From the NCBI RefSeq assembly GCF_003918875.1, contig NW_025767157.1:1488001-1552000 (forward strand): DNA of 64,000 nt, given 5' to 3'. The position numbers and the translations under genes were made by a program. Under the pieces are notes generated by a model. The model had not been told where the DNA came from, made no database searches, and saw only the letters and a program-made list of their open reading frames with translations. Position 1 is the stretch's first letter, and each line of letters opens with the position of its first letter. Below are positions 10,571-56,826 of the stretch, in pieces. The stretch comes from Haliotis rubra (lineage: Eukaryota).

Positions 10571-11978
10571 CTTGGCTGGATTACTTACATTGCCTTGTTT
10601 TCTTGTGTGACCCAGGGAAAATTGGCTACAGAAGTGTGATATGCATCATCTAACTGATTTATTGCTGCTTTGTAGTGTGGTGAACATGATTTTTATCTCC
10701 CCGGACTGTAATGCAGGGGATATAGTCAACGCCTCGTCCGTCTGTCCGTCCGTCCGTAATCATTTTGTTTCCAGAGCATAACTCAAAAACTTAACTAAAC
10801 CTGCAGAGGTTTCCAATTCTTTTGAAGAGAGTCGTCCTTGGGGTACATATATGCATTTTCTGCGGCTGAAAATGGCCTGTAACAGTTGTATCAATGTTTT
10901 AATAACAATATTGTGCAATAAATAAAATCTTTTTTATCTATTATACGGCCCCCACCACATGGAGTTACCTCCCTGCTACGCATGCGCAGCCAACCAGGTA
11001 AGCACCTAGGCCCATATCATCATTCCTTCTGCTGAATAAATCAGTGAACAGAATTGCGGGGAGGTGGGCGCGACCTCCAAAGAGGACTCTCTTCAAAGAA
11101 TTGGTTTAGTTAATTCTTTATCAGAGAGATCGTCCTTGGGGTACATATATGCATAAACTCAGACTCCCAAAGACCGGAGGCCAGGAAGGAGGGAATTCTG
11201 TTAAAGTACACATGAATAGCGATCGTTAGGAATAATGTAACAGAGGCCACAACACTCACCTGTCACGTGTCCCGGAGCTTCCGCGAGAGGCATTATGGGA
11301 GGGTAACCGACAGGGAGGATAAGTACTTAGAACCGACCTCGTAGGTTAAGCATAGCAAGTTGGCACACAGTGCGAAAATAAACAACCCCAGGTCGGGGCA
11401 GACCACCCGAGCCCGCAAAAAGGCTGGGAGCCAGACGAAGAGGACTGCTCCTTACCCTTACCTTTGGAGGAAACCGTGACGGGAACGCGGGGGCTAGAAG
11501 CCTGCGGATGCTCCAACAAGGCCTTAGAGTCCTTGAAGGAGATAGCTGCAGCAGCAGCCTCCCAAATGACCTGCTGAGCCCCAGGAAACAACGTCGCTCC
11601 CAGACGGAACGGAAGGGCTAGCAAGGTCTGCTGTGTTGCTGCTGAGCAATCCAGTCGACAGCCACAGCTTGCACATCCCTATAATAGCCGCATCACCGTC
11701 AGACGCTGACCCGCAAGGCAGCGAGTCCTTCGGTGTGGCCTGCACTTCGGACCACAGTCGAAGCAGAACAACATACAGGGACACGTCCCCAGTGTTCCCT
11801 TCAGCCTCCAGAGCTGACCTTTGGATAGAGGAAAGGTAGGCCTCATGGCATTCCGATAGACTTCCTCATAAGTCAGGTAAGCCTGCTGCAGGGGCTTCAC
11901 AAGGCCAAACGGTGGTACAAACGCCTTGCTTGGCAGACGGGCTGCAACAGAGGAAGCTGAGCCTCCCCAGGGCTTAAT

Positions 11979-14900
11979 CGGGGATGTGAGCACTGATTAA
12001 AAAAAAGAGAGGAAAATAATCTGCAGCAGAAAGTGTGGCCATGCCAACCCCTTAGGGTTTGCATTTGCTAGGGTGGTAAGCCCCCAGAAAATGTTAAAAT
12101 CAAAACTACATTTCCTGCAATTTGGTGCATTTCCTCATTATATTTTACCTTATTTTACCTTATCTTTACCCTCAAAATATCTACCTCTTTTGGATGTCTT
12201 TCTTTGGTTGATAACAAATTTGATAATAACTGTCAACAAACATCAATCCAAGCATTTGCAATCTTAAAGAAATTTAATGAGACAAAAGTAGTGCAGATCA
12301 TTTCCTTGCATTATCATTTAAAAGCATTATCAATTTAATAATGTAATCAATTCACAACATCCTGTACATTGTCCTGAAAGTGTCACTAAACTAATCAGCC
12401 TTCTGTGTCTCTATGTTCACAGTTCAGAGATTAAGATTTTTCCACTTCGGCAAATCATCAGAATAGACTAATCCAATTTCTTTCTTTTTTCACTAAACTG
12501 TTTCTTCCATGATGCTTCCACTTCTTGTGAAACTGTCTCCTTGTATTTTCTTTTAGATACAGGATTGGCTGGAGGTGCAACAATTCCAAAAGTCTTCTGG
12601 TTTTCTCTGACCTCTCTCTGTCTTGTTTCTTTAGACTCTTGGTTCCGCCTATATGCTGTCTGCAGATTCTTACATAAGAGTGGGTTCACTTTAGAAAATT
12701 TGGGGTCCTTGTCCACAGATGTTTGGCCTCTAGCCATCAGTTCATACTTCACAGTCTGAATGGCACTGTAAGTTTTAATCTTCATGTTGGCTGACGAATC
12801 ATCAAGGATATCACCCATGATGTTGAAACTACTTTCAACCATAGGGCCATGAAAACAGGATATGACACCCTTCACCACAGATGTCAGAAGTGGGTACCGA
12901 CCAGTTTTATGAACCCTGGCCCACCACAAGTCAAGCTTCTCCTCATCACAAGCCAGTGGTCCAGGCAAGTTCTCATCAACAGTATACCCTCTCACTTCCA
13001 TGTCAAGTTCATCCCTGGTTTCTTCAGTGGTGATGTTTGTGGCTAAGGATGGCAGTTGATTCCGATAATGTTGTGTCGTGCAATGTTGCCTCACTACAGG
13101 ATCCAGTGCTGACATTGCCTTCAGCACAGGGTTGTTGATGGGCTACTTGGACAGGATGGCAATGCTGCAGCTGATGAATGCTTCTTTGGCTTTTTCCAGG
13201 AACTGTGAAACAGTCTTGTCACTGCCATACTTTGACAAAACTCCTCTTGTTTTCCATCCAACAAAAATATCTTTCCGTGGCAAGTGGTTTGGCAGGGTCT
13301 GACACTGCAAAGTTGACCAGCTTCTTTGGTGTGATTCCCTTCAGAACCTCTGATTTGATGAAATTTGAGAGGAACCTTGTTACCAACTGTTTCTGCTCGT
13401 CATGCAGCTTGTCTACTGTGGTGTCCTTTGACCGGAACATGACAACATACTTCTTCAGTTGTCCCAGCACTGCTGTGTAGAACTGAAAAGCAAATAAAGA
13501 AAACTTAAATATAATCTAAAAGTTTAAAACATAAATGACTCATTACTGCCGGAAATATTAAGATGCAAACTGGTAAATACAAAGTGATATTACATGTATA
13601 TAATGTGTTTACTAGGCAGCACAACTATACACAAATTATCAATCATACCTGCATGATCAAAAATGTCTTGGTGCTCAGATGGAATAGATTTTCCAGGATT
13701 CTCTGTTTCCTCTCTTTTCCTTCAGTGGTCATGTTCTTTTTGAGGATAGGCTGGAGCAGTTTTTCAACTGCATTTTGATCATTTTCATGGCTCACATTGT
13801 ACTTTGCATAGATATAATTGACAATATCCCTGTAGTTGCAGGTCTCAGTTTTGAACAGGAAAGGGAAGAAGAAGAGAGTGTAGGCATCAAATAATCGAAG
13901 TGTGTCTACACAAACATTATATACAGATAACCACCTGTGAGCGATATATCTCTCGGGCACTGTGTATTTAACATTGCCAAGAATGGCACATATCATCTGT
14001 AAAGCTTCCCTGTGGTCAACAGACCACTTAAAGTCAGAATGGAGGTCACACATCAGTCCTTCAACGTGATATTCGAAAGGCTGGCAGAAACGTTTTGCTG
14101 CATTGTGGGCATGGTGACAGGTATCGCCATCTATGTCCAAAAGATGTGGAGCTCTTTTCGTCCTGATCATCTTTTCTAATCCCTTCTTTGAACCTCTCAT
14201 AACAGCACAAGAGTCCATCAATATAGACATCAAATTTGTCCACGGGATATTGTTTGATACAAACAATTTATCAAGAGCTTCAAATAGTGTTTGACTGTCA
14301 ACTTCGAGAACAGAAAGAGAGTCCAAATGGTGAACAACAACTTTCTGTTGCTCAGTTGAGAAATAGCTGACAATAACTGCCAAAACATGATGGTTATCGG
14401 AACTTGTAGCTTCATCAATGTTCAAGGAACACTTGTGTGTTCTCATGTCATTAACAAGAATTTCCCAGTAAGTATATGCAAGGCCATGGGTCATCTTATA
14501 TGAGGCTGATGTTCTATCCATAGACAGCTGGTCAAGCGCAGACTTGTCAGAAGACAAAGCCTTTGCGAGTGAGATCAACTTTGGAACTTGTGAAAATGAA
14601 AGTGAATTATCAGCTGCAAAGGACAACGACATTGCTTCAGCATTGTGAACGCGATCTTTAACTGGAGTCTTTGCTGCTATAGGTGGTAATGAACTTGAGG
14701 TTTCTGTACTACTGTTGTCTTGTCCTGAAGGAATAGGCTGTTTGAAGATACTAAACACCTTCTGCTGACCTGTAACAGAAAATAAGAAAAAAAAATTAAT
14801 GAAAATGAAGGGTTGAATTATTTGAGCTATAAGTTAACTTTTGCAGTAGTAAATATATGGGAATAGTAGGATAAATACATGTACCATAATTAACTATATA

Positions 14901-16283
14901 TTGTGTCTAATAATTCTTATAATTTGACAAAGAAATTCCAGTTGAAGATTATGTCTATTTACTGCCATCAAAATTAAAACATGCTTACAAAAAAAAATCA
15001 GACATTTAATTCATGCATGTATGTAGCTACAAACTTATAAGTTACACAAGCACAGTGGTTAGTGTAGGTACAGAACTTTAAATTGTTGTTTTAGGTGATT
15101 TACCTAACTATACTAACAATTGTCCATAGACATTATAAACAGTAAAGCAATAATCATGATAATCAAGACAATACAAAAATAGTGTGGATATAATCATAAT
15201 ATGAAGTGTTCTTGAGCGTGTCAAGGATGAGTAGAAAGGCAATGTTAAAGTCTAAAAGATGATTAATAATGAATAATAATTTGAGAAAAAGCCACAACCA
15301 TCAACAAATAAACATATATATTACCATCACCTATATATAAATATATGTATAAATATGATTACATAAGAGGCTAAGCTATATATCAATGTATATAAAAAGC
15401 TTACATGATTACATGAGCTAAGGTATATAAAATACTTACTAAGACATGCATCAGTTTATCACTGCAAAGTGGATGAAAATAAAACAAAACATGCATTATA
15501 TATACCTAAATACTACAATCCAACACTTGCCAGGGATAGTTACGGTTCTCATTTTCATATATAAAATATTACTTTATTGAACATGCTACATACATAATAT
15601 TAAACAGAAGTTTAGGCACAAGACAAATATTTAATTATCTCAATTTGCTTCCCATGTTTCTCGTCTGCATCTTAATTATTTTATGCTAAATTAACATGAT
15701 ACAGAGATTACGCGAATTATTATCAATTATAAAATACAGTTTAACTAATCAAATTATGTATGTACCTGGTAATGCATAATTTGTCTTCTGAATGAGAACC
15801 AGCTCCTTGTGTTTCGATCCAGCATATTGATCTTCGAGTGCGACACACCCACGCTTCCCATAATTTATTTCCTTTCTACAAATCTTACAATATGCAAAGC
15901 CAGGTTTATCAATCTTGTCAATCACAACACTAAGTTGTGTTTTTATCTACATTTTTCCAGCCAACCCCTGTTAGGGACTTTTAACTCCCTTATCGATTTT
16001 CGTGACATCGGACTTCCATTCAACTGTCGCCATGTTTGTCCTTTGTTTACGCTGAGCTCCCAACCTCGCGTACTACCAACAGTGCTATGAGATACGCCTA
16101 TAGGGCCTGTATGGGCTCTGGGGAAAATCAGGATCACTTCGAGGCAAGATCAAATCCGGACAATTCGCGAGATCGCGATGTGAAAATATTTGTTTGCTAT
16201 TTGAGAAAAAATCACAGAAGTGATATTTTTAAGCGAAAATTAATTTGGAAAACGCGAATTTTCCCGGAAATTTCACATCCCTG
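11979..16283 (-). mobile_element. hAT DNA transposon
   Basis: TIRs cggggatgtga (11979-11989) and tcacatccctg (16273-16283; reverse complement CAGGGATGTGA, Ac-like). Encloses a hAT transposase; DIRS gag resumes on both sides. Confidence 0.85.
12468..16033 (-). pseudogene. hAT transposase, three exons, disrupted
   Basis: Exon 1 ~16033-15766 has a BED-like finger (AYCKICRKEINYGKRG...SKH). Exon 2 14769-13649 has NIDEATS, LMDSCAVM, CHHAH and HRW. Exon 3 13482-12468 has the dimerisation domain LDLWWARV...YPLL...VESSFNIMG. Frameshifts/stops near 15970 and 13250-13140. Confidence 0.85.
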
Positions 16284-19200
16284 CTCTTCACGAGTTCAGG
16301 CAAATCGAGACCCGGGCGTGTCCCCACCAGGAGGGATCCATCCGTCCTGCACCAGGGAAGGCAAGATGAGTCCAGCCCGCCCGGCGAAGCGGAAGTCAGA
16401 TGAGTCCAGTGACTGGTGGGTACAGCGGCTTTGGGAATGAACTCGGCAATATGCTGCCGAACCTCCCGGAGAGCCGTCAAGAAATGGAAAGTGCCCTCCG
16501 GCTCCTCGACCTCCCCAACGTCCATAGACTCGGCACCCGAGCCCGAGTCAGAATCCAGGTCTCCTCGCGAAGAGGATCCGAACCCTGACCCGGTGGGAGG
16601 CCGAGCCCCAGACACCGAGGGAAGGGAAGAGCCCAAGGAACTACCCGCTCCGGCAACCGACAAAATACTCGAAACCCCGGTCCTGAGACACGGGAGGAAG
16701 ACCGGGCAGAACCGGCTCATCCGCTCTCATGGGGCAGGGCGGAGGGGCGCAGGGAGCAGAACCCCAGGAATCCTCAACAGACCCTGCGCCAACACCGCGA
16801 GGGGGACTGGGAGCAAACCCTCCCCTCCGGGATAGCCGAGGCGTCCGGACCCGAAGCCAGAGGCAACGGATCGACAGACGCCTCCAGGCTAAGGGATTGA
16901 GCCGTGCTCGGCGATCCCACCCCCGGAGTCTCTGTCCCCTGCTCAGAGTGGGCGAGGAACTCCTGACGGAGACCTCCAACAGACTCGTGAACAAGGGACT
17001 TCACTGAGTCCATATGCTGCTGGAAAAGTTGTGTAATTAAAGACATATCAAAACCACTGTGTGACTGAGGTTTCTTAGCCAGCTTAGATTTTTTAGCTTT
17101 AGACGGGGGGACCTCTTGGGTCAGGTCCCCTCCCGCCTCTCGCAACTCTTTGTAGAAGAGAAAATCCGCGGCCCTCCGTTTCTGGGCCCGGGGGGAGAAG
17201 GCCATGCAAAGTTCACAAATATCAGGGTTGTGGCCGACTTTCTCGAGACAGCACAAGCACTTGTCGTGCTTATCGGCTCTGGGGATGTTCTGCCTGCAGA
17301 CAGAACACCCAGTAAATGCCTGAAAGCAAACACGCAAGCATGTAGCTAACAGCGGAGCCAGCAGCATAAATAAACACGTACAAAACATTGAAAATTACGT
17401 GAATGTGACCGCGGGAAGAAATACTTGGCTAATAACGCACAATACCACTGGCAGCTACGCTAAACTTCCCGCCATGGAAAAGCAACACGTGCGTAAACCA
17501 CGGGAAAGCTAGCGTAAAGTTTAATACAAAGTCACATTAATGAGAAATAACAGACTGCAAAAGTCTTATAATACTGTTCTGTCAAGAACAAATAAAGACC
17601 ATACATACAGTTGAAGTCTCAGACATTATTCTTTATACAAGAGGTATTCAGCAAGGCAACTCGAAACACGTCTGAACGGTTGAGTGACAGCAGAAGGAAT
17701 GATGATACGGGCCTAGGTGCTTACCTGGTTGGCTGTGCATGCGTAGCAGGGAGGTAACTCCACGTGGTGGGGGCCGTATAATAGATAAAGATTTTATTTA
17801 TTGTACAATATTTTTATTAAAACATTGATACAACTGTCACAGGACATTTTCAGCCGCAGAAAATGCAATTATGTACCCCAAGGACTATCTATTTGAAAAA
17901 GAACGTCAAATATTTTTCAACAAAACTTGGTAGATATATCAAACAGATCCTTAAGTGGTGCCTTTTGCTATTTGCAGATTTTTGGCATTTTTATTTTTCC
18001 CTGTTTCCATGGAAACGATTCGGACTTAGTCCCAAAAGGGAGGAGTGGGTTTCGTTTACGGAGCACAACTGGAAAACTTCTTAATATCTTTCAGCAAAAC
18101 TTGGCAGATATGTGAGGCAGATGCCAAAGTGGTGCCTTTTGCTATTTAGCAAATGTTTGGCATATTTATTTTTCCCGTTTTCCATGGAAACGATTAGGAC
18201 TTAGTCCCAAAAGGGAGGGGTGGGCTTCATTTCCGGAGCACAACTCGAAAAGCGTTCAGTATCTTTCAACAGGTCTTGGCAGATATATTAGGCAAATTTT
18301 GAAATGGTGCTTTTGCTATTTACAGATTTTTGGCATTTATATTTCTCATGATTTCCATGGAAACGATTTGGACTTAGTTAATAAAAAAAGTCAAGCTGGA
18401 CTTTAAGTAACTGTCAGATGATTTGTTCTTTCAAAGATGTGGGGCTGGGGGGATATGTCATCTTCTGATGACTCTGGTATGAAATGCTGGTCAACAATAA
18501 GATCCTGGCCATGGTCAAAAGTCACTGGCCACAGACTGTCTGTGCTATCAAGATGCACAGGTCTAGGAATCTATAGGCCTGGCTTAGGACGAGTCGGGAG
18601 ATGATCGGATAATGAGTTTACCATGGGAAACAGCTATGAACAATGTTTTCAGTCTTTTCCCAAAATTATAAAAAGGACATTTAAATTTAGGCTGCGACAT
18701 GCTGTCAGTCATATACAGATTATAAAAAAAAATATGAAGTTCTATAGAAATGGACGTGCTGTTACATGTTCATGTGCGCAGTCTTGCTTTAAGCAACAAT
18801 AAAATTGTATGACAAGTTTTAGCTCCTTTACTAAATGCAGGAATGTATGTACATTTAAAACACAAGCTGTACTCATAGTCACCCAGTTACAATTGCCAGA
18901 TGATTCAATCTACACTAACAGCTCCCATTGAAAACTACTTGTAAAACAACTGATTCTGATTTGGTGACCTACTCTCAGTGAGTAGCACATGCCATATACT
19001 ACCTTGGGATGTGATATTTTGTTACTGTGCTTTATATGAAGCTATTTTGATGTGACTTCAAATATACATGTACAAGATGTTTCCTGTGACTTAATCTGCA
19101 AATTGCTGCCGCTGAAGTTGTCCAGGAACTGATGATCACCTTTCCCACCAGATAGGAGTAAAGGGGCTGACTCTGTAGTAGAATGAAATGTAGTTGATGT

Positions 19201-33800: not shown

Positions 33801-36800
33801 TGTCCTCCATGCATGTGAAATACTAAATATGTCTTGTCACCATCTGTTGTGTGTTAGATGATGGGTGGCTCCTTTGATCTTGACTCCCAACCATAACATA
33901 AAAATTCAACTTTCAAGTGTTTATTGGACCCTCATATTGTCCTGGCTAGACACATTTTTGCACACTATTGCTTGTCACATGAGGTCATTGAGGACAATCC
34001 AGGGATCAGACTGGGCGTCCTGGTTGATTGCCTCTCATGGTCCCTCAAAAGCATTGGTTATTTGCTCATGATATCAACCTTTCTTTTGTCTTGTTAAGAC
34101 CTGATTGTGCACATACTGATGTGATATACCTGGAATATTGCTGTCTGTTATTTCAAATACCACTTGCTCAGTTTTTGACATATTCAGTTCAAAAGCATCA
34201 TCTGTTTATGGTATTGTTCATGTTTAGTGACCCGTGAAGATCCAGGGTAGAATAGGTCTTCAGTAACCCATGCTTGCCACAAAAGGCGACTATGCTTGTC
34301 GTAAGAGGCGGCTAACAGGATCGGGTGGTCAGGCTCGCTGACTTGGTTGACACATGCCATCGGTTCCCAATTGCTCATGCCGTTGATCACTGGATTGTCT
34401 GGTCCAGACTCGATTATTACAGACCGCCGCCATATAGCTGGAATATTGCAAAGTCTGGCGTAAAACTAAACTCACTCACTCATGTTTAGTGGGTGCGGTA
34501 TGGTAGCCTAATGGTTAAAGCATTTGCTCGTCATGCCGAAGACCCAGGTTCGATTCCCCACATGGGTACAATGTGTGAAGCCCATTTCTGGTGTTCCCCA
34601 CTGTGATATTGCTGGAATATTGCTGAAAGTTTGGTGTCATTCTATTCAAGTGTTTGTGATGTTGTATGTTGTTACTTTTCATATGTGCATAAGCACTGAA
34701 ACCATTTATGTTGTGTTAATCCAGATTGTGTTTATGATGAATGTGACATTTCCTTGCAGGGCAAAGAAGTTGCTGTAGATATATCTCGCTTACCAGAAGG
34801 AACTGTGATATTTGAGGATATTGGTCTGGATATGATAAAAGGAAAAGTGCTAAAAACCTTAAAGAATGGCAACAATCGTCGACAGAGTGACCCTCTTGGT
34901 GGGAGAATTATATATGAAACACCTAAAGGGTATGTTTTCAATGTACTTGTTGATCTGTTGTAATTGTCTTTGTTTTGGAAATTTAGCATGGGGTCTGTAT
35001 ATTGGAGAAAACTCTCTGCTCTGTAGTGGTGGCCCTTGAGTTTTTGTCCCCCGCCGCAACGCAGAACGGGGGACTATGTATTCAGCGGCGTCCTTCCGTA
35101 CGTCCCGATTCTTGTTAACTGTTGTACCCAATGTCTTCAAATTTGGTGACAGCCTACATTGTGAGATTATGCAGACACCAGTCAATTTGGGTGACCTTGA
35201 CCTTTTAAGGTCACCACGATACTTTGACCACTTTTCAAACTCTTGGGAGAGCGGAAGGTCGCGGGTTCGATCCCCGACCGCGTCATACCAAAAAGACGTT
35301 CAAATATGGTACTTGTTGGTCCCTGCCTGGTGCTCGGCATTAATGGGTACAGCAAGGACTGGTCGGCTCGGAGTCAGTATAATGTGTCTGAGTGGGGTAT
35401 TCATGCTTCAATGCGGCATGGTATCTCAGTGGGCTAGCACTATAAAACCAGCTTAAGTCTGGGCTAGTACAAGCAGCCACACATACACACATGCATGCAC
35501 GTCGTCATATGAGCGAAATATTCTCAAGCATGACGTAAAACCCAATTTCACCTCACCTTTCAAACTCTTGTTAACGCGATATCTCATGAAATGTTGTACC
35601 CAATGTGGTCAAATTTGGTGACAGCCTACATTGGGGGATTACGCAGACACCAGTCGATTTGGGTGACCTTGACCTTATTTTCAAGGTCACCACGACACTG
35701 ACCACTTTTTAAACTGTTAACGTGATATCTCATGCACTGTTGTACCCAGTGTCGTCAAATTTGGTGACAGCCTACATTGGGGGATTACGCAGACACCAGT
35801 TTATTTTGGTGACCTTGACCTTCAAGGTCACAATGACACTTTGCATGCTTTAACTCTTGTTAACGCGGTGTTTCATGGACTGTTGTACCCAATGTCTTCA
35901 AATTTGGTGACAGCATACATTGGGGGATTTCACAGACACCAGTTTATTTAGGTGACCTTGACCTTATTTTCAAGGTCACCACGACACTTTGAACACTTTT
36001 AACTCTTGTTAATGCGATATCTCATGTACTGTTGTACCAATGTCTTCAAATTTGGTGACAGTTTACATTTGGGTATTACACAGACACCAGTTTATTTGGG
36101 TGACCTTGACCTTATCTTCAAGGTTACCACGATACTTTGACGGCTTTTTTAAGGCGATATCTCATAAAACATTGCACCCAATGTTTTCAATTATGTTGAC
36201 AGCCTACATTGGGTGATTATGCAGACACCAGTCATTTCAGGCATCTTGTATGTGACCCAAAAAATAAAAAGTAGTAAATAAAGATATTCCATTCTTTAGC
36301 GGCGGGGGACATTGCCATATCAGTGGCAAACACTTGTTGTTGTATATGTTGTGATTTTGGTTGCGTGAAGTACGTAATCTACTTGAGATACTTTAGACGT
36401 TAGATATGAATCTGAGATAACGCAAACACTTACCAGAGGTTGCAATGGATTGGATGGTCAGACTTTATGGATTGGATTGGAGTGATCTGTTTGAATGCAT
36501 GTCATCTTACTCTGACGACATCAATCACTGCACACAGTATCAGTCACTGGATTGTCTGGCAGAGACTAAAATTTCTTGAAGATCACCGTCATATAGCTGG
36601 AGTATTGCCTACTGCAGCGTTAAGCTACAAACACTTCCTCACACATACATTAGTTGGAAATTATTCTTTTTCATAGAAATCGTCCTTGGGGTCCAAATAT
36701 GCATTTTCTGCGGCTGAAAATGTCATGTGACAGTTGTATCAATGTTTTAATAAAATATTACGTAGGGTTACCTCCCTGCCACGCATGCATGGCCAACCAG

Positions 36801-39800
36801 TTAAGTACCCAGGCCCGCATCATCATTCCTTCTGCTGTCACGCATCGTGTTCACACGTGCCTTGACTGTGCTGACAATTCTATGATGTCTGAGTCTTCAA
36901 CTACTGTATGTATGGTCTTTATTCGTTCTTTAGAACACTCTTTTGACTTTGCAGTTAGTTATTTCTCATTTATATGACTTTGTAATCAACTTTTACGCTC
37001 GCTTTCCCGTCGTTTACGGACATGTTACTATTCCATGGCGGGATGTTTAGCGTGCCACGTGGTTGAAATATTGCTTTATATACTATTATCTCATCTCGCG
37101 TTGTCGTATTCACATATTTTCAATGTTTTATACATGTTATTCCTGTTTCTGTTGTATTTGGCCATTAGCTACATGCGTTGCGTGTTTGCTTTCAGGCGTT
37201 TACGGCGTGCATTACCTGTAAGCAAAAATTGCCACCACAGGACAAACACGACAAGTGTTTATGCTGCCTAGATAAAACTGGGCACAACCCAAACGTGTGC
37301 GAGCTCTGCCTTGGCTTTTCCCCCAGAACGCAAAAGAGGCGACCTGCCGATTTCCTTTTCTTTAAGGAATTGAGGGAGGTGGGAAGGGGACCCGGCTGAC
37401 GAAAGTCCCCCGTCTAAGTCTAAAAAGGCTAGGAAGCCCAGCAAACCCAAATCTTCAGGTTCTAAAGAATCTCAACCTTTTGATATGTCATTAATAAACA
37501 GATGTTTCAGCAACATATGGACTCAGTGAAGTCTCTCGCCAATGAGTCAGTTGGAGGACTCCGGCAGGAGTTTCTCGCTCGCTCTAGTCGGGTGACGGAG
37601 AGTTCGGGGGTCGAAGCGCCGAGCTCGGCTAGATCCGTCGGCCTTGAGGTACCTGTTGATCCTTTGCCGCTGGCTTCGGGTCCGGGAGCTTCGGCCACCC
37701 CGGAGAGGGAGGGCTCGCACCCAGTCTCTCTCGGTGCTTGTGCAGGGACCGTTGAGGATTCCCAGTGTTCTGGTTCCCCATGAGAGTGGAGGAGCCAGTT
37801 CTGCCTCTGCTATCTCCTACGTCTCGGGACCGGGGTCCTGGCATGCTGTCTGTGTCCGGGGCAGATGGTGTCTCAGGGTCTTCCGTTCTCTTGTAGTCTG
37901 CAACTCAGCTTTCTGCCGGGTCGGGGTTCCTCTCTTCGGGAGGATCCGGATTCTGGCTCGGGTTCGGGAGCCGAGTCGATGGATGTGGGAGAGGTTGAGG
38001 AGCACGAGGGCGCTTTCCGCTTCTTGTCAACTTTGCGTGAGGTACATCAGTGCATAGCGCAGATGTTGCCCCAATCTGTGGTGCCGACATGCCGTCAGGA
38101 TTCATCTGAGTTCGGCCTGCCAGGTGAGGCGTTTGCTACTCGGCAGCCTTCACAGACGCAGCTCTCCGCGTTCTTCCGTCACTGATCCAGGATGTAGTGG
38201 ATCCGTTGCTCGCTGGTTCTCGGCTCCGATTGACTTACCCGAACTCGTGAAGCGTTACCAGCTGGGTGATGAGTCCCTCTTCCAGGTTCCAGGTGGATGC
38301 ATGTGTTTTCACTTCGGTCGCCCTCGGGGGAGGCTCGGCTTCCTCAAGTTCAGCTCCAGCTGCCAAACAAGGGCGTTTAGTTCCACCTTTTGCTCAGTTT
38401 GGCAAGCTTACCGAACCTACAAGGAGGGTTATCGAAATGCTGTGCAGCAGATCAGGGTGGTGGTCCATGGGGCGTATCTCTCCTCAATTCAGAGGTCGGC
38501 GTTGGAGGCGGAGGGAGGCACGAGTTACGTATCACCTCATGTTGTCTTACTTTGTCAGCTCACCGACGTGCAGGCCCACCTGACCAGGGACTCATTACGG
38601 TCTGCTGCGTGGACGGTGATGTGAGCAGTTATTGGGATGCGCAAGCTGTGGTTGTCGACCTCATGTTACTCGGCGACAACCCAGCAAACCTTGCTGGCCC
38701 TTTCATTATGGCTGGGTGTGACACTGTTTTCGGGGGCGCACGGTTATACGGGAGGCTGCTGCTGCTGCCAATACTTCTTTCAAGGACTCGAAGGCCTTGC
38801 TAGAATAACCGCGGGTTTCTTGCCCCCGTGCGGGCACTTCCTCCAAGGCGCAGCCTACGCCCGAGTCTGCAGGATGGCTTCGGCCACTTGGCAGGGGAAG
38901 GAGGAGGAGCCGCCCCCCGCCAAAGGTAAGAGTAAGGAGCAGACCTCTTCGTCTAGCTCCCAGGAGCCTTTTTGCAGTTGTGGGGGTCTGCCCCGACCCC
39001 CCGTTAGACTTGCTGGCTGCTCCACCGGATACGTCCCAGCCAGTCCATCTGCAGGGGACTACTCACGCTCCCTTACCACATATCCCAGTGGGAGGCTGCT
39101 CCCTCTATTCCTTCCGGTGTGGGAGAAGGCTACTCACACCGTACGTGTCGGCCATTTACCGCTGTGGAAGAGGCCCGCCAGAGTTCACCGGCATAAGGCG
39201 CACTCCGGTGCTGTCATGTCCGATCAAGGCAGGTATACTGCGAGACGAAGTTCAGGCTTTGCTGGACAAGTCCGCAATAGAGCGCATACCACCGGGAGAG
39301 GAACAGGCGGGGGTTCTATTCCACGTACTTCCTCGTAACGAAGAAAGACGACGGATTCCGTCCCATTCTCAACCGCAAGGGGTTGAATGATAGAGGTTCC
39401 ATCCTTTAAGAGATTCTGGGCAGCCTGTCGGTGTCTGGATGCAGCAGAAGTCCGTCTTCACATCAATGTGTCGGAACTGAGAGGTGTGCGGTTGGTTTTC
39501 GAGCGCTTCCGGGAGCATGTTCAGGGCCAGGTTGTTCGTCTTCAGTTAGACAACAGCACGGCCATTCCGTACAGTGCGACTGTCAGGTGATTCCTGTCTA
39601 TCTCCCAGGGCTAGAGAACGTGCGAGCAGATGTGCTCTCTCACCAGATCCTGGCCCCGCACAAGTGGATGCTCAATCGGCAGATAAATCGGAGTTATCTC
39701 CCAGTTGTACGGATCATTCCAGGTGGATCTGTTTGTGTCCGGTGGGATGAATCAGATACCCATGTTTTGCTCTCGAATACCGGACCAGAGGACACCTTCC

Positions 39801-42800
39801 TGCTGGATTGGACGGGCAAGGTACTGTGGGCGTTTCCGCCACTACCTCTCATTCCCCGGGTCCTCTCCCAGCTGTCCACCCAGCCAGCTCGGCTACTTGG
39901 TCTTCTGGCACCACTTTGGCCGTCACAGGGCTGGTTTCCGGTAATTCTCAGGTTTCTGGCTCAGCCTCCTGTTCTATTACCCTTTCAACCGGACATTCTC
40001 ACTCAGAACGGCGCGCCACACCCCAATTCACGGATTCAGTGGGTGGCTTGGCCTCTGTCAGGTCGAGCCTCGAGGCACGGGGAATTCCTGCAGCAGTTGC
40101 AGACACAATTCAGGCTTCGAGGCTGGATTCAACAAACGTTCAGTGACTACGAGGATAGGTGGTTTTACTATGCGCGCTGGTGTTCAGATAGGGGCATTGC
40201 AGATCCCTTTTCTGCGGATTTAGTCCGAGTTTTGGAGTTTCTGCAGTCTCGTTTGGAAGAAGGTTTGGCGGCTTCGACCATTCATGGCTACTCCACCGCT
40301 ATTTCCAACTTTCACATCCCTGTCGATGGTGCTCTTCTGGGGCAGCACCCTCTTATGCAGCGCTTCTTAGCTGGCGTGGATCGGCTTCAACCTGCTCTCA
40401 GGTGTACAAACCCACTTCACTGACTGTGTTCCATCCAGATCACATCAGTACTCACCTCCCAGATAGTTACCATCCGAAGATCGATCACGCTTTCCATGTG
40501 ACAGCTCCTATCGAACTTCCCACTCTTATCCAGCCTTCTACATCGGGGACCTTTGCAACGAGCACTCACCCGTTGGATGTCCGTAAGACCCTCAAGGTCT
40601 ATATCAAACGAACACAAGGGATCCGACAGGTACCCAGCTGTTCTGCTGTTATGGTGGTGGGAAGGCTGGAACTCCTGCCAGCATAGTCAATTCCTGCCAG
40701 ACACTTTCTCGCTGGCTTGTGTCGCTTGTGTGACTTGTATTTGGAGCCGGCCTAGCACTTTAATATGGCACTATCAGCTTGATACACATTCCCGTGATCG
40801 AGCGCGCTTTGGCCGATCTGTTCTCTCCAGTGGACAGTGTCCTGCCACCCTGACCGAGTGAGTCTTGGTTATTTGGTTTCTGACGCTGAGATCAATTGTT
40901 GTGTTAATTGAAATAACTGCTGTTGAATTCTACGACAACTTTCAATTTCTCTGATGAGTTATTCGGTTGTGAGTTGTGGTTTCCCCCTTACAGTGCTCTC
41001 TAGAGATATCACTAAGTGGGCGGGGTTTTAATTACACACTATGTGATGTGTTTTATTGCTTAACATGTTGAGGTCAGTCCTCAGTACGTTTCCTCCCTGT
41101 TGGGTCACCTCCCATAATGCCTCTCGCAGAAGCTTCGGGACAAGTGACAGGTGAGTGTTATGGCGTAAGTAACTTTTCGTTTACGTGATCGTTATTTATT
41201 TGTATTGTGACAGAATTTCCTCCTCCCAAGCCTCCGGTCTTTGGGTTACGGGCCTGGGTACTTACCTGGTTGACCACGCATGCGTGGAAGGGAGGTGGGG
41301 GGCCGTATAATAGATAAAAAAGGCTTTTTATTTATTGTACAATATTTTATTAGAACATTGATACAACTGTCACATGACATTTTCAGCCGCAGAAAATGCA
41401 TGTATGTACCCCAAGGACGATTCTCTTCAAAGAATTGGAAACCTCTACAGGTTTATCTAAATTTCTTGGATATGACTGTAAAATGTCTCAGTATGTTGAC
41501 TGTCACAAAACATACTGACTTGGATCAGCAACAGTGTCAGGTTAGATTGGTGTTATAATCGATTTTGATTCAACTTTCCTATTTTCTTTCAGTACAATGG
41601 ATATTCCATTTGGTGATAAAGACCAGAAAGGTGATTATACTCTTCATCAAGGTGACATTGTGGAGTTCAATATTGCAACTGATCGTCGAGATAAACTCCA
41701 GAGGGCAACCAACATACAGCTTGTAGAAGAAACATTTGATAAAGTTGGGGAAGTCCGAGAAACGGTGGGTGGAAGACAACTTTTTATTGAAGTTTACCCA
41801 TTAATTTGTCATTTAAACACACATTGTCAATTAAACAAAACACATAAATCGGTGGCGGCGGAGGAACCCAGTACATTATACCCATCAAAATACTCATAAA
41901 CATGTCAGAATTGAATGGGATAGTCGCCAAGGGAGACCACCGATGATAGTTTCAAATTGTACCAAAAGTCAGTGGTCTTGTTCAGCCTGTATCTGGATGA
42001 CAACAGCTTTGGCAGTACAAAAGTAGTTACTGACTGCTTTCTGAAGCATCAATTGAATTTAATCAATTGAGGTGGTACAAATTAAATTGAACAATTCCTA
42101 GAAAATATTATCCATTCTCATCCATTCTGCTATCTTGGTGTTAACTGTATTCCAATCAAACCTGTACTCATCTCTACCTTTGAGTAAGATCAATAATCTT
42201 TCATTTTGTTCTCTCCAGTGTTATCATATTTCTGCTCCATGGTCCAAGAGAAATGTACTATTGTTCCCTTTTTCTATCTTCAGGGTTTAGTTGTGAGCTT
42301 GAAAGAAGGCTATGGATTTATCCAGTGTGCTGACCGCGATGCAAGAATGTTCTTCCACTTCAGTGAACTTCTTGATCCAACGTCTGCAGTCAATGTACAG
42401 GATGATCTTGAGTTTACTGTAGCTCAGGTAACTCCATACTGAATACTCACAGCAGTGTGTTGCATTTTTTTCATATTTAACAAGTACAACTCTTTATTTT
42501 CTTAGTTATTTCCATAATGATCTGCAGAAACATGAATTTACTATGTATTTTTATCCCTGACATTTGTTGACTCAAATTTTATATGCTTATGTAACAGGTC
42601 ATGATCTGAAATGAGTTAAAAAATAGTGGTATCTGGCATTGATTTTTATCCCCCCGGCATGTGATGCTGGGGGATATAGTTTATGCCTCATCCATCCATC
42701 TGTCCGTCCATCCGTCCGTAATCATTTTGTTTCCGGAGCATAACTCGAAAACCGTTCAATATTTTTTTTTAAAATTGGTAGGTACAGAACCTAAAGTGGT

Positions 42801-45800
42801 GCCTTTTGCTATTTACAGGTTTTTGTCATTTTTATTTTTCTTGGTTTCCATGGAAACTTTTTGGACTTCTCAGAAGCGAGGGGTGGACTTCGTTTCTGGA
42901 GCACATCTCGAAAACCGTTCTATATCTTTCTACAAGACTTGGCAGATATATCAAAGAGATCTTGAAGTGGTGCCTTTTGCTATTTACAGATTTTTGGCGT
43001 TTATATTATTCATGGTGTCCATGGAAACGATGTGGACTTAGTCTTTAAAAAATCAAGTTGGACAGATAATTTTTCTTTTCAAATATGTGGTGTCAGGGGG
43101 GATCTGTCGTCTTTGATGAGTCTTGTTATCAAAGTAGCCAGAGGCACAATATCTGTTTTAAAGTCGGTACAGCCTTGGGAATATGTATTCCTGAATTTGA
43201 AGTCACGTCATGAGTTAATAGCATATTAATGTTTTGAATTTCAGGATCCCTCTGCCTCCAATCGTCAGATTGCCATTCGTATCAAGCATCTTCCTAAAGG
43301 TTCTGTGTCTTTCCTGACCATTCATAATGAAAAATATATTGGAACAGTAGACAGAGAGCCTGCAACTCACAAAACACAAGGTATTCATTGTCTTCACTTC
43401 TGTCTGTATGTTAACTTACCCTTATTTTGTTATTCAGCTCTTCTTAAAAAACAGTAGGCCCTGGATGCTTAAAATTTACTTTCATAATCACAGTTACAGT
43501 GTGTTGTATGTCCATCCAGAACTTTTATCCCATTTTGAAAATGACAGCTATATTTAAGGACTGTAATAAGTGTGTCTAGTACAAGACACAATAGCAACTG
43601 TAATATTTGTATTTCTGTTCCAGCCAAGAATAAAGAACAAGAGGGTGGTAACGTTGTCTTTGACTATGAAGGCACCATCCAATCTATTACGTATTTTACC
43701 AAAGACCTTGTGGAGATGAAACAGGCTCCCCGCTATGGTGACAAGGTAGGTCAATATTGATTAACTGCATGTAATGATTAATGTGATTGAAATGTGTCAG
43801 TATTCTGGAAAAAAATATCAAGTTTGGATAGACAGGTCAAAGTGTTGTGATTAAACTGTTGTTCTATTTAATTTCCTGGACAAGAACTGCAAGAATATCA
43901 TCAATTCAATCCCTTAAACATAATCAGTGTTAAGGGTAACATACAGCTTTGACGAACCAATTACGATTTGTCACTGTTGTACTTGCTATGTATAATGGTT
44001 CCAGCTAGGTACAAATGTTATGATATGTGACTGTTGCACATTTGTACTTAACTGTAACCATTATATATATTGAGGCATGAAAATCACTTGTGAAAGCATG
44101 GCTTATGGATACTGAAGATTGAATATTTGGATTAATGGCGTCTGAACCATTTGTGAATTTAATCATCATAGTATTTACTCAGTTGCAAGGATACTCGTTT
44201 ATAACATGGTTGGTGTTTCCAAATGTTTGGCATAGTATTGGAAGCCATTTGCCCTTCTGACAATTTTCAACACTATTCCATGTGGATAATAACCCCACAG
44301 CATTTAACATTTGCAGTTTGTAGATGCATGTTCAGATTATAATGTTCAATATATTTGACGGGATGATTTTAGTATCTGTATATAAGTTGTTGAAATGTGT
44401 GTCTAAGTTTCTTGTGTATTTTATTTTTCAGGTTGAATTTCGATAGGGGAACAAAAGTCCAATAACAAGCGCCAAGCTGTGAATGTTCGAGTGGTTTTGA
44501 GGAACATCACTGGTCGCTGTCAGGGCTTTATTGCAACACTGAAAGATAATTATGGCTTCATAGAGAATGCAGAACATGACAAGGAAGTCTTCTTCCACTA
44601 TAGGTAATTCTTTTTTGTCCTACTCTTCAAAACCCCATGGACCGCCTCCGTGGTGTAGTGGTTAGAGAGTTCGTCCGGAGAATGGAAGGTCGCGGGTTTG
44701 ATCCTCAACCGCATCATACCAAAAGACGTTAAAATATGGTACTTGTTGGTCCCTGCCTGGTGCTCGGCATTAATGGGTACAATAAGGACTGGTCAGCTCG
44801 GAGTCAGTATAATGTGTCAGAGTGGGGTATTCATGCTTCACTGCGGCATGGTATCTCAGTGAGCTAGCACTATAAAACCAGCTTAAGTCTGGGCTAGTAA
44901 AGCAGCCGCACATACACATACACACGCATGCACGTCATCATGAGCGAAATATTCTCAAGCACGGCGTTAAACCCAATTTCACCTCACCTCAAAAACCCAT
45001 GCTTGTGATAAGACGGACCTTATGTGATTGGGGTTTACAAGCTCTCCGACTCGATTGATGCATGTTATCATATCACATTTCTATTGATCAATGCTTATGC
45101 TGATCACATGATTGTCCGGTTCAACCTTGAGTGATACAGACTGACATCATTCGGTTCAATTTGAATTTAGTAACATTCAAGCATGAAACATGAGTGTCTT
45201 GTGAATTGTGAATCAAATGGAAAGTTACCATGTTGATAAATTTGTAAAGGCATATATAGCTTGAGTGCACTTTACTGTAAACTGATAAGCTGTACGTATC
45301 AGTTTTTGTTGTCCCCTGCCGGAACGGGGGACTATGTATTCAGCGGCGTCCGTCCGTACCTCCCGATTCTTGTTAACGCGATATCTCATGAACTGTTTGC
45401 ACCCAATGTCTTCAAATTTGGTGACAGCCTACATTGGGGGATTATGCAGACACCAGTCGAATTGGGTGACCTTGACCTTATTTTCAAGGTCACCACGACA
45501 CTTTGACCACTTTTCAAACTCTTGTTAACGCGATATCTCATGAACTTTTTCACCCAATGTCTTCAAATTTGGTGACAGCCTACATTGGGGGATTATGCAG
45601 ACACCAGTCGAATTGGGTGACCTTGACCTTATTTTCAAGGTCACCACGACACTTTGACCACTTTTCAAACTCTTGTTAACGCGATATCTCATGAACTGTT
45701 GTACCCAGTGTCTTCAAATTTGGTGACAGCCTACATTGGGGGATTACGCAGACACCACTGTATTTAGGTGACCTTGACCTTATTTTCAAGGTCACCACGA

Positions 45801-48800
45801 CACTTTGAACACTTTATAAACTCTTCTTAACACAGCATCTCATCGACTGTTGTACCCAATGTCATCAAATTTGGTGACAGTTTACATTGGGGTATTACAC
45901 AGACACCAGTTTATTTGGGTGACCTTGACCTTATCTTCAAGGTCACCACGATACTTTGACCGCTTTTTTAAGGCGATATCTCTTAAAACATTGCACCCAA
46001 TGTTTTCAAGTATGTTGACAGCCTACATTGGGTGATTATGCAGACACCAGTCATATCAGGCATCTTGTATGTGACCCAAAAATAAAAAGTAGTAAATATA
46101 GATATTCCATTCTTTAGCGGCGGGGGACATTGCCACATCAGTGGCAAACACTTGTTGTATTTGAAATGTCAGTGTTACTGGAGATTCACACATTGTTACC
46201 TTGCAGTTCGTTCGACAAGGATGCCAGTGACCTGGAGCTAGGAGATGAAGTGGAGTATATCCTTGCCCGAAAAAGCAGCAAATTAAGTGCCGAAAATATC
46301 CGCAAGTTGCCAAAAGGAACTGTTGCACCAGAGGTATATCAGAGTAACAGTTGTTGCAATTAATTATGTTTGATGTTATATCCATGTTCAACCTCAGCAT
46401 ACCACTATAAAGTAAGAATCTTGTTCAGCGGTTATAATGCGCAATTCACCAACTGATCAAAGGTGAACTGATCACTTCATGGTTTATGTTGACAGAGGGG
46501 TAGTGGGGTAGCCTAGTGTTTAAAGCATTCAGTCTTCACACTGAAGATCTGGGTTCAATTCACCGGATGGGTACAATATTTTGTCCCAACCATGATATTG
46601 CTGGAGTATTTCTATAAGCGATAATACATACCAGTACTCAGTCAGTCCCTCACTGCTGTTTACAGGAAATGCTGCGAGATCAGGGTATCCTGCAGGGAAA
46701 GATTATCCGTCCAATGAGGATCGTCAACCCTGAACAGGATGAGTACTGTGGTCTGGTGCAGGTGAGGGAAGAGGACGACCCCAGTATGGTCACCTATCCA
46801 TACGGAATCACAAGTCTTGCAGACAAGCGAGATTTCCTGCAGAAAGGGGACATTGTTAAGTTCAATGTTGCTGTGGTGAAGTCCTCTGGATCTCACAGAG
46901 CTGTCAACATAGCAGCACTGCGGAAGTATGTTCGAGCCAGGGTGGATTCAGTCAAGGGACAGGTACAGTAAAACCTGTTTCAGTGGTATTTTTAATAGAA
47001 TTGCCTGTTAGAAAATCAGGTTCATGTAAATGAATGTTTCATGAATTGGCCATGTAGGCAAACCGCTCAGTTTGGAACACCTAATAATATTGGCCATGGG
47101 CCCCAGATACTTTCAATTTTTCCTTATCCTGACTCATGCTAATTATGCTTGTCTCCTTCCTCTTGCGAATGATAGTGGAACACTTAAAATCCCTTGAAGT
47201 TCCCTTTAAAAAACCGGACATAAAATCACTCACCCAGGAGTAGCGTCCCTTTCCTCAAATGGTCACATGATCAGCCATATTTGTCACTCTCTCCTTCTTT
47301 GCCCTTGAGGACGGTTGTGAGAGCACCTGGGTCCCTATACGGCACATATCCTTTTTTATTTTCGGACCTTACATAAAAATTATTGCTGTATACGGTTTTT
47401 AAGATTATATTCTACATTACGGTTTGAAATTTGTTCTAAATTTTTCGTTGTTTGACATGTGTTTTCTTCATGTTTACAATTGATGAAAACTTGTATTTGT
47501 TGTAGGTACCGAGTGTCTGCGGCTGACCCTCTTTTATTATGTCCTAATTGCACTGTTTCATGTTCTTTCAGCTCTCGCTGTAAGTATTGTGTAAAATTAA
47601 ATTCGGTTGAATTTAATAATTACCTTTTTTCCATCCATAGACATGCTAAGGACTGGGTACGTAGGTATTCACAAGTAATGTCTTAATCAAGTGATTGCAC
47701 TGATAACCGTGTGTTAACCATTGCTGCAGATATTCATAATTCTAGTGAATTGCTGATTGTTCTCAGGAGCAGGTCGATGTACCAGGGGTGAACGCCGGAG
47801 GCCATAAGAGATCATCGTCTACTGAGCTGACCTCATCGCAGATGAAGAAGGCTACTACCATGAAGACTTCAGCGAAATCAAAGATCAGCTCTACTCAGAA
47901 GACGAGGTCTTTCTCAGCCGAGATTGTTCCTCTGGAAGAAGCAGATGTTTATGATGATCCACCCATCCTCATACCTGAAGTCACCATCGTCAGTAAGAAG
48001 ACGAAGCCTACAGTCTACAGCTACATCGACATCGACACTGGTATCAGCGCAGACATTGACAGAAGACCTACTATCAATGCAGACATCGGGTACCAGAGAT
48101 AGCAGCAGCATCAACTCTTCACGAGTGCAGCAAGCCTTAGATGACGTCTCTTATTAGTGAACGCCCACCTAGACAGCCTAGATCCGTTAATACTACCGAC
48201 AGTTTGAAACCATATCTCCTATGGTGGACTCGTTTGCGGAGGGACCTTTTTGTCAGAGCCGGTTTGCAACACTCATATCTACGTGGATGCCTCCCTACAA
48301 GGATGGGGTGCGCACTTCAACAACGAAGTGGCAGCAGGGAAGTGGTCGAGAAATGAGTCAGTTGGAGATCAGAAATCACACATCAATCTGTTGAAGATGA
48401 AAGCAGTAATCAACGCGTGGAATCTTTTACAACATTGGTCCAGCGATCATTCTAAAAAGAACACTTATTATTATTAATCGCTTTACAACTGTCCAGCTGC
48501 ACACACTCTGGTACACACGGACAACTCCACAGTGGCGTTTTACATCAACAAACAAGGGTCAACAAGATCAACAAGTCTGCTACAACTCAGCTTTCTCCTG
48601 TTCAGCATAGTCGACGACCTGAACATCTACATGAAGGCATGCCACATTCCAGGAGCAAAGAATGTCATATCAGACGCCCTATCTCGTCCACTACAACCAT
48701 CCTCGACGGAATGGATGTTGCATCCAGAAGCATTCCAGTTCATCAGACAGACTTTAGGATCCCCACTAATAGACCTGTTTGCAACAAAGTTCAACAAACA

Positions 48801-55528: not shown

Positions 55529-56770
55529 TCAGTCAATCTGAGAAAAACATAAATATTTGATTAATGAAGGTGGCAAGGGCAAATTAGACTCGCTGAACTT
55601 ACTCCTTGCTAAAGCGTGTTTAATAACTGATCGACAAATGGACTTGAGATTGATTGGTTTTGGTACATTACACGTAAATAATTGAGTGAATTCATCTTGA
55701 TCTCGTTCCATCAACCAGAATGTCACTTTGGAGTCGCAGACTGTGAAGATTGGCACAATTAGTTCATGTTTTTTCAATTGCAGCAAGCCACAGCTGAATT
55801 CTTTACAGCCTACAAGCTTCAAAGTTGTTGAACTGAAAAAATACACGTTGAAGAAAACATTTGAGGAATTGTCAATTACTCTGCAAGAAATGAGCATGGT
55901 GTCTCCACTTTGGCAGTATGTCATAGAGCAGTCTTGAAGGAACAGATATCTCAACTCCTCATCCTCACTATCTGAATCTGAATCTGTCCCTTTCTCCTGT
56001 ACTGTCAGATCAAGTTTTCTGGAACACTGCAGCACTTCCTTCTTAACTTGAAAATCGTACATACTAAACTTACATTTGGAGCAGTAGCTATCGAGCAATG
56101 CTGTCAGTAATTTGCAAGGGTGCTGTGGATCGAAAGCCATAAGCTGGAATTTCCGATCTCTGAAACTGCTCGGTGATGTTCCTATGATAGGATTCAGGTC
56201 TCCTATAGGGACGTGTTCCTGTGCTTTCTTACAAATGAGAAGTTTGGACCATTTCTTTGGGCTGAGTATTGTCTGAGGGAGCCTGAGTAGACACACCATT
56301 TTGTCTGGGCTGAGGAGACATTCTAGAGGCGACACTGCTGCGGAGTCCCGGAGGAAAAAGTGCTGAGTATCTTCGAAAGAGGTCACCTGCTCGGAACCTC
56401 GGTCAATCAAAACAAATTTTACATAACGTGCTTGCTTGTCGCTGGTGACGTATTGAGCAATACATATATCGCCAACACATCCTATGCAAGTCATCTGACC
56501 CAGCATTCGCCCAATCTCAAATTCACCAGGCAGTGAGAAGTAATGACAATGTTTATCAACCAAATGTTTCCGTGAAATTATTTCAGATTCACAATTGTTT
56601 TTGGCCTCAAATTCCCTCAACACAAACTTTCTCTCCTCACAATAGACGTGAATATTAATGAAACGCCCTGAACACATTCTGGCTTTGTCCCCATAAACAT
56701 GAAATGAGCATTGTCTCCTTCGGCTGACATTATTTCCGATAGAAGACTTTCTCGTCTCGAACTTCTGCAT
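55529..56770 (-). CDS. Intronless SOCS-box protein, 413 aa from the first ATG
   Basis: 1.24-kb uninterrupted ORF. The C-terminus PINLKSICRSVIKHAL...NLPLPPSLIKYL fits a BC-box plus LPLP cullin-5 box. Minus-strand AATAAA at 55219-55214. Start codon uncertain. Confidence 0.85.
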   Translation of the reverse strand: MQKFETRKSSIGNNVSRRRQCSFHVYGDKARMCSGRFINIHVYCEERKFVLREFEAKNNCESEIISRKHLVDKHCHYFSLPGEFEIGRMLGQMTCIGCVGDICIAQYVTSDKQARYVKFVLIDRGSEQVTSFEDTQHFFLRDSAAVSPLECLLSPDKMVCLLRLPQTILSPKKWSKLLICKKAQEHVPIGDLNPIIGTSPSSFRDRKFQLMAFDPQHPCKLLTALLDSYCSKCKFSMYDFQVKKEVLQCSRKLDLTVQEKGTDSDSDSEDEELRYLFLQDCSMTYCQSGDTMLISCRVIDNSSNVFFNVYFFSSTTLKLVGCKEFSCGLLQLKKHELIVPIFTVCDSKVTFWLMERDQDEFTQLFTCNVPKPINLKSICRSVIKHALARSKFSESNLPLPPSLIKYLCFSQID

Positions 56771-56826
56771 CTGTTCCGTCAACCTTCACCTTAAAAACAT
56801 TGACGACCTTCACCTTGTCAACAACC

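Follow-up and report, generated by a model that had tools for sequence, protein, structure and literature searches.

Does a retrotransposon of the abalone Haliotis rubra keep a spliceosomal intron between the start codon and the body of its own gag gene? The question is raised by a stretch of 64,000 nt (NCBI RefSeq assembly GCF_003918875.1, contig NW_025767157.1, positions 1,488,001 to 1,552,000, forward strand), referred to below as the window, which contains two diverged copies of a DIRS1-like element. A preliminary description of the window had read an ATG-bearing mini-exon, a donor, an intron and an acceptor in both copies, and re-reading of the sequence showed that its coordinates for these features were right. 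In copy B (36663..41464, + strand; delimited by its terminal inverted repeats (ITRs) and by blastn/tblastn against the intact natural copy L071), the coding part of gag exon 1 (36885..36905, 21 nt, phase 0, assigned from the sequence and the genome-wide pattern described below) begins with ATG 36885, encodes MSESSTT, and has an additional in-frame ATG at 36882. It is followed by a predicted spliceosomal intron of 290 nt (36906..37195, GTATGT...TTTGCTTTCAG, 37% GC, 44% T) and by gag exon 2 (37196..39007, tblastn), which opens with the codons GCG TTT ACG and encodes a zinc finger, a basic region and a LAP2alpha-like C-terminus in a broken frame. In copy A (10787..17903, - strand), the coding part of exon 1 (17609..17626, 18 nt, ATG at 17626) encodes MSETST, the predicted intron (17320..17608, GT at 17608) has 289 nt, and the 5' part of gag exon 2 occupies 16286..17319, with in-frame ATGs 16 and 23 codons ahead of the acceptor. 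Both copies have a GTATGT donor and a TTTCAG acceptor. Both are broken, non-autonomous relics: besides its broken gag frame, copy B lacks the core of the reverse transcriptase (RT) and the internal complementary region (ICR), while copy A, which keeps its ITRs and ICR, is internally deleted, with RT and tyrosine recombinase (YR) gone and gag split by a hAT-like insertion. The test of the intron therefore had to rest on other copies.

A DNA search returned 1033 candidates, of which 40 were scored, and the distant gag P0002 as a query led to copies in which gag is open over 640-654 codons. The pattern ATG-W-S-T-N{4,26}-TGTATGTATGGTYY, which leaves the length of exon 1 free, had 704 matches in the genome, compared to 10 for the reversed control. 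The layout with the start codon on a mini-exon is genome-wide and found in hundreds of copies. Among the first 100 of the 704 matches, exon 1 measured 18 nt in 20 cases, 21 nt in 29 and 24 nt in 46, and its length was not a multiple of 3 in only 5. We also compiled a set of 71 copies by requiring both motifs, which meant dropping 28 of 99 sequences with a missing motif, a length outside 270-302 or no ITR anchor. In this set, 18 and 21 nt were the only exon 1 lengths common to at least 3 copies, two or three phases were seen in the leader and in five of the six intron segments, and an unspliced reading from the exon 1 ATG ran into a stop ahead of the acceptor in all 71.

Copies picked by their gag protein alone gave the same picture. 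Both splice sites were found in 24 of 29 distinct copies, and the remaining 5 were deleted or truncated in the splice-site region; these tallies include false fuzzy matches in deleted copies (acceptor in L003 and L093, exon 1 in L004, L030 and L043). The preliminary description had proposed that GT and AG be compared across genomic copies, and in these 24 copies GTATGT was present in 24/24 and AG in 23/24. Intron lengths in this family (family 1) ranged from 277 to 300 nt, and all three phases were represented among the gag-picked copies. The predicted introns show what is expected of the U2 type, namely a GT donor consensus, a pyrimidine-rich YAG acceptor, and agreement in phase. The branch point region is less clear: an invariant TTAGCTAC lies about 25-30 nt upstream and one subfamily has CTAAC, without a clean consensus. 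In a young clade, 20 copies have a leader ATG, and in 17 of them the frame of such an ATG continues without a stop into that of exon 1, at seven different codon-multiple distances. The spliced form would also match other DIRS gags, which begin 3-13 residues ahead of the zinc-finger F-x-x-C (P0027, P0032, P0035), and the M-K-T-C start of the gag of a second DIRS family in the window. The RefSeq Haliotis rubra gene model P0001, itself a prediction, joins exactly at the acceptor of gag exon 2. Trans-splicing was rejected because exon 2 lacks a conserved ATG.

The boundary at the acceptor was also apparent from the substitution pattern. Changes on internal branches, counted in 50 copies not picked by the pattern, amounted to 0.07 per column in the 30 nt before the AG, and to 1.32, 0.78 and 3.64 at codon positions 1 to 3 after it, third codon positions being variable from the first codon past the AG. 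In the same copies, the leader had 2.70 changes per column, the intron interior 0.69, the donor 0.25 and the acceptor 0.07.

The arrangement was not confined to family 1. P0007 as a query led to a sister family, whose gag shares 51% identity with that of family 1 across 436 residues. In 16 of 20 loci of this family, exon 1 has 24 nt, the donor is GTATGT, the intron measures 400-483 nt, and the zinc finger follows immediately on TGCAG or TACAG. Local alignment of the sister-family intron with that of family 1 scored at about shuffle level. In sister DIRS1 lineages more generally, the donor, phase 0 and the acceptor at the zinc-finger start were kept, with introns of 400-520 nt. Among 20 further loci with other exon 1 peptides, the zinc finger was present in 16, with an AG exactly at the boundary in 9 and at most 13 nt off in 7 (indel-bearing copies). 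Of the features that the preliminary description had considered conserved, the ATG mini-exon, donor, acceptor and phase 0 are thus shared across lineages, but the conserved intron length does not extend beyond the family (277-300 versus 400-483 nt). For other species, support comes from protein starts alone: P0008 begins with M-Q-S-F and P0024 with M-F-Q-G-F, as would be expected from a gene caller at a TTG-CAG acceptor. Searches with gag alignments for DNA relatives in other species found nothing in viral or metagenome contigs, and a protein search for near-length relatives had no match.

In several of the sister lineages, we observed a micro-exon-like cassette in mid-intron, at about +220 to +250, consisting of a pyrimidine tract, CAG, 6-11 nt, and GTAAG or GTGAG (L170, L177, L179, L185, L187, L190, L193-L195, L197, L200, L201, L203). 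Some of these cassettes begin with a stop codon in frame or change the reading frame, in the manner of a poison exon. The same pattern had no match in the MS.SETAT lineage.

Several observations weigh against an intron. The copies are related, so that the counts do not represent independent events, and the 71-copy set was filtered in advance for both motifs. In their conservation, the splice signals stand out only modestly from the remainder of the intron, and conservation alone does not single them out; the preliminary description had named signals no more conserved than neighboring bases as an argument against the intron, and the data go part of the way in that direction. We read the strong conservation of the interior as a second function of the intron, and not as evidence against splicing. 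Finally, in-frame ATGs occur inside the intron: in its last stretch in 29/57 copies, in 19/27 of the gag-picked young copies (with one conserved ATG in 16/27), and in 8/16 sister-family copies. Some lineages could start Gag on unspliced RNA from such a codon, though behind several upstream ATGs.

If there were no splicing at all, the conserved stretch would be a long structured leader, Gag would start at the late ATG or at a non-AUG codon, and the mini-exon would be a regulatory upstream open reading frame. Conservation across the whole intron and the in-frame ATG in 19/27 young copies fit this explanation. Exon 1 is also predicted to pair with the acceptor region, and the donor with bases upstream of the acceptor, which could likewise account for the invariance of those sites; the pairings are weak, with one-sided changes only, and were not seen in the same register in the sister family. 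However, the conserved late ATG is out of frame in 38/56 copies and lacking in whole subfamilies, including that of copy B, and 7/9 exactly mapped sister-lineage loci have no in-frame intronic ATG. Family 1 introns contain 4-12 ATGs, and the late in-frame ATG sits behind several of them. A regulatory upstream frame also gives no reason for the codon-multiple spacing between the ATG and GTATGT, or for a YAG fixed at the start of the zinc finger in sequences that cannot be aligned. Because the late ATG is out of frame or missing in whole subfamilies and is preceded by other ATGs, we consider an unspliced leader highly improbable. The comparison of copies instead makes it very likely that the 5' stretch of gag is a true spliceosomal intron.

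The preliminary description had further proposed that Gag is made from spliced RNA, while the unspliced RNA is the template for replication. The comparison supports this well, through the phase-locked exon 1, the recurrence of the same sites in diverged lineages whose introns cannot be aligned, and the failure to find a copy without the intron. Three junction patterns, which span three lineages and not all of the 704 matches, gave 0 matches genome-wide to an exon 1-exon 2 junction without the intron, a check that had been suggested at the outset. The lack of an intronless copy suggests that spliced RNA is rarely if ever copied.

What would distinguish the copied RNA may lie in the intron itself. 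A hairpin around the motif ATGGCGG was predicted in 20/20 sequences from all lineages, and the motif keeps a near-fixed distance from the donor, of about +100 to +140, in all of them. In copy B, the predicted hairpin (36994..37054, + strand, alifold) has ATGGCGG on its 3' arm and is a candidate RNA signal or a YY1-like DNA site. In retroviruses, packaging signals are located 3' of the major donor, and by analogy the conserved hairpin region would be a likely signal selecting unspliced sense RNA. This assignment is qualified by modest z-scores (-4.1 to +0.2), by other intron windows that sometimes fold equally well, and by the lack of two-sided covariation within family 1; ATGGCGG could be a DNA element instead of an RNA signal. 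A search of the intron against Rfam had 0 matches at E 1. We take ATGGCGG to resemble a YY1 site, and CACGTG, also in the intron, to resemble an E-box.

Transcription of the element would start at the inner end of the left ITR, where TCATTC or TCACTT is found. We take this site to be initiator (Inr)-like, and an RGWYG at +28 from its A to correspond to a downstream promoter element (DPE). RGWYG occurred at +28 in 25/90 family 1 and 23/35 sister-lineage sequences, and at most 3 times at any other offset from 18 to 44. In copy B, the left ITR (36663..36837, +) ends at +13 from the Inr-like A, and the core promoter predicted from the motif offset counts (36823..36857, +) consists of TCATTC (+1 = 36825) and a degenerate DPE-like site at +28. 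In copy A, the Inr-like site (+1 = 17700) and AGACG at +28 together occupy 17669..17702 (-). The right ITR also has an Inr-like site, with no +28 element in the 3 copies checked.

The intron could be real and yet survive for another reason, namely that the copied RNA never met the spliceosome, being either nascent nuclear RNA, a possibility discussed for Penelope-like elements, or antisense RNA from the right ITR. Conservation would then reflect a promoter or enhancer. The 0 intronless copies are explained equally well in this way, and the near-fixed distance of ATGGCGG from the donor in all lineages is in agreement with it. Precedents may be found in the accessible parts of two reports, which describe sense and antisense RNA of DIRS-1 (PMC5633606) and a retained 5' intron of Penelope that overlaps an internal promoter (PMC8557442). 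Against it stand the missing +28 element of the right ITR and the hairpin, which is predicted around the motif even in lineages of different sequence. According to the available part of a study of Dictyostelium DIRS-1, moreover, the tagged element copies sense RNA and loses a marker intron placed at the 3' side (PMC7192593). That study also describes a marker intron between the left repeat and ORF1 that was found unspliced in cDNA, which its authors explain by splicing factors competing with those of retrotransposition. On balance, we regard avoidance of the spliceosome, the main rival to selection by a signal in the intron, as unlikely.

How the downstream frames are expressed was the remaining part of the question, since the RT frame has no Met before its domain. 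Near the end of gag, a G-CCT-TTT motif is followed 8 nt downstream by a hairpin, with the same site and spacing in both families. The motif was present in 5/5 family 1 and 11/20 sister loci, two stem pairs of the hairpin are changed on both sides between the families (covariation; L065, L168), and QPFR is kept in distant gags. RT is likely reached by a -1 frameshift at this site; Gag and Gag-RT would then both need the splice. In copy B, the predicted frameshift site with its hairpin (38966..39003, +) is degenerate, and the remnant of the RT/RNase H/methylase open reading frame (ORF; 38986..40220, +), in which the RT core is deleted, is followed by that of the YR domain (40030..40858, +) and the right ITR (41247..41464, +).

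The YR frame is open over its entire overlap with RT, with 0 stops in 628 and 629 codons where 14 and 17 would be expected; the minimum in 2000 synonymous shuffles was 5 and 8. Amino-acid conservation in the overlap is low, and there is no shared Met (L065, L071, L168). As the frame is free of stops across all of RT, YR is likely entered near the end of gag, since splicing immediately before the YR domain would leave no need for an open frame. A -2 shift at the slippery site would land in the YR frame, which we mention as speculation.

The preliminary description had instead considered that the donor of exon 1 might also be joined to acceptors in the RT or YR frames. Neither RT nor YR has a conserved Met, which is consistent with such splicing. 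In family 1, a phase-0 CAG lies in the RT frame after the gag stop, but it is out of phase in the sister family, while the slippery site and the covarying hairpin are kept. Splicing of exon 1 to RT was rejected on these grounds. For YR, a phase-0 AG in frame ahead of the domain (AATTCTCAG|GTT) is kept in both families, in a patch with few synonymous changes (2/23 four-fold sites), and leaves an optional splice possible. Its pyrimidine tract is weak, and the stop-free frame over RT points to entry near the end of gag. The micro-exon-like cassette of several sister lineages could change the phase of such a splice. Overall, splicing of exon 1 to downstream acceptors for RT, the recombinase, or both appears distinctly unlikely.

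Taken as a whole, a model with an intron-split Gag, a frameshift, and an unspliced template is in our view probable. RNA synthesis would begin at the Inr/DPE-like promoter, where the left ITR has its inner end. Exon 1, which has 6-8 codons and is longer in one young clade, would be spliced in phase 0 to the zinc finger, and a -1 frameshift at G-CCU-UUU with its hairpin near the end of gag would lead to RT. RNA that retains the intron could not make Gag from the exon 1 ATG and would serve as the template for copying. More tentatively, and with somewhat less than even confidence, we suggest that in an entire animal DIRS1 clade the RNA used for replication has become non-coding: one 5' intron would lie between the sole start codon and the frames for Gag, Gag-RT and, probably, YR and at the same time bear the signal for copying, so that the host spliceosome would set the ratio of mRNA to template. 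The acceptor in the gag body would in that case also explain two captures of gag in mammals (see below).

Intact copies help to place the element. They have ITRs of about 215 nt, 96-99% alike in most, and an ICR that matches both outer termini, over 43 nt at the left end and 54 nt at the right end (L061, L065, L071, others); copy A has the ICR and copy B has lost it. A 719-codon ORF for RT, RNase H and Dam (RVT_1 E 3e-20; RNase H E 7e-4 and Dam E 2e-3, the latter two below curated cut-offs) is overlapped by a 1133-codon ORF with a recombinase-type domain at its end. In the latter, R...HxxR...Y-type motifs were read by eye, the Pfam match was weak (Phage_int_SAM_1 E 0.09), and there was no NCBIfam or PDB match. 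A domain search of the intact copies gave no integrase match. Gag matched LAP2alpha (E 4e-4, below the curated cut-off), its profile matched reptile DIRS-type ORF1 models, and the nearest named proteins were Haliotis rubra models. The split direct repeats of Ngaro/PAT-like elements were not found; the termini are inverted and an ICR is present. Judged by ITRs, ICR, domains and ORF layout, the element is DIRS1-like.

DIRS1-like elements such as Dictyostelium DIRS-1 (PMC3266345) share the ITRs, the ICR, gag, the RT-RNase H-methylase ORF and an overlapping YR ORF, but here the start codon of gag is on a separate mini-exon. The mollusc elements of that overview (Piednoel et al., 2011) have no long ORF overlap, unlike those of Haliotis, and its main text contains neither "intron" nor "splic" (PMC3266345). 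Papers on nematode and kinetoplastid YR elements mention no introns for these elements. A native DIRS1 gag intron was not described in any paper that we found, but older subscription papers, Repbase and supplements were outside the search, so that a prior report may exist. Fungal Ngaro elements, described by Goodwin and Poulter in 2004, are reportedly YR retrotransposons with spliceosomal introns; their split direct repeats differ from the ITRs and ICR found here.

Gag from spliced RNA is not unprecedented. As far as the accessible text of the reports goes, the Ty1/copia elements EVD of Arabidopsis (PMC5580714) and BARE of barley (PMC3735527) also make Gag from spliced RNA, with separate pools for translation and copying and an inherited intron. 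In EVD and BARE, splicing takes place 3' of the start codon and yields a gag-only RNA, and the unspliced RNA still encodes the polyprotein and can be translated. In the Haliotis elements, by contrast, the splice supplies the start codon, so that it would be needed for Gag and for Gag-RT alike. Penelope-like elements likewise retain a 5' intron that overlaps promoter sequence, but they belong to a different order with a different mechanism, and the part of the report available to us places the intron in the untranslated region and not between ATG and ORF (PMC8557442). With the elements described here, an animal DIRS1 clade joins the few retroelements in which introns are inherited.

The acceptor also bears on gag-derived exons of mammals. 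The LAP2alpha and ZNF451-L2a exons derive from DIRS1 gag, and the colonizing sequence was inferred to carry a splice acceptor (Abascal et al., 2015, PMC4495291); the accessible part of that paper describes no native DIRS1 gag intron. The Haliotis elements offer a natural example of the postulated acceptor and, if the reading is correct, an acceptor in the gag body would account for the two captures of DIRS1 gag as an alternative last exon (LAP2alpha, ZNF451). In reptiles and fish, M is the first residue of several gag models. The arrangement further bears on how DIRS elements translate ORFs that lack a start codon, and on how they divide their RNA between translation and copying. For annotation, it means that ORF-based procedures truncate these Gags, as in P0002-P0004 and P0006, which begin inside or past the zinc finger.

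Some further features of the genome and the window were noted. In the RefSeq Haliotis rubra models P0001 and P0016, parts of gag are joined to host genes (for a Tudor/BRCT protein and a second, uncharacterized protein), possibly by exonization or as an artifact of the models. The hAT-like DNA transposon within gag of copy A lies at about 12000-16280 (Dimer_Tnp_hAT E 0.013). At 6065-6286, there is a short decayed fragment of family 1, in which the left terminus adjoins mid-gag. A second, internally deleted DIRS family occupies 47117-50256 (3167 candidates, 40 scored at 89-100%). Its gag starts with M-K-T-C (ATG 47483) behind an AT-rich leader, needs no intron, and had the Met in 18 of 18 readable loci out of 20 taken. 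A 418-codon ORF at 55529-56785 (- strand) has a C-terminal SOCS box (E 8e-5). Copies of a short interspersed element with a tRNA-like head are dispersed at 2317, 9903, 33331, 34487, 46492 and 59096 (repeat families D6/D7), and tandem arrays are formed by a 33-nt unit at 2925-4260 and by units of about 150 nt at 35563-36288 and 45366-46088.

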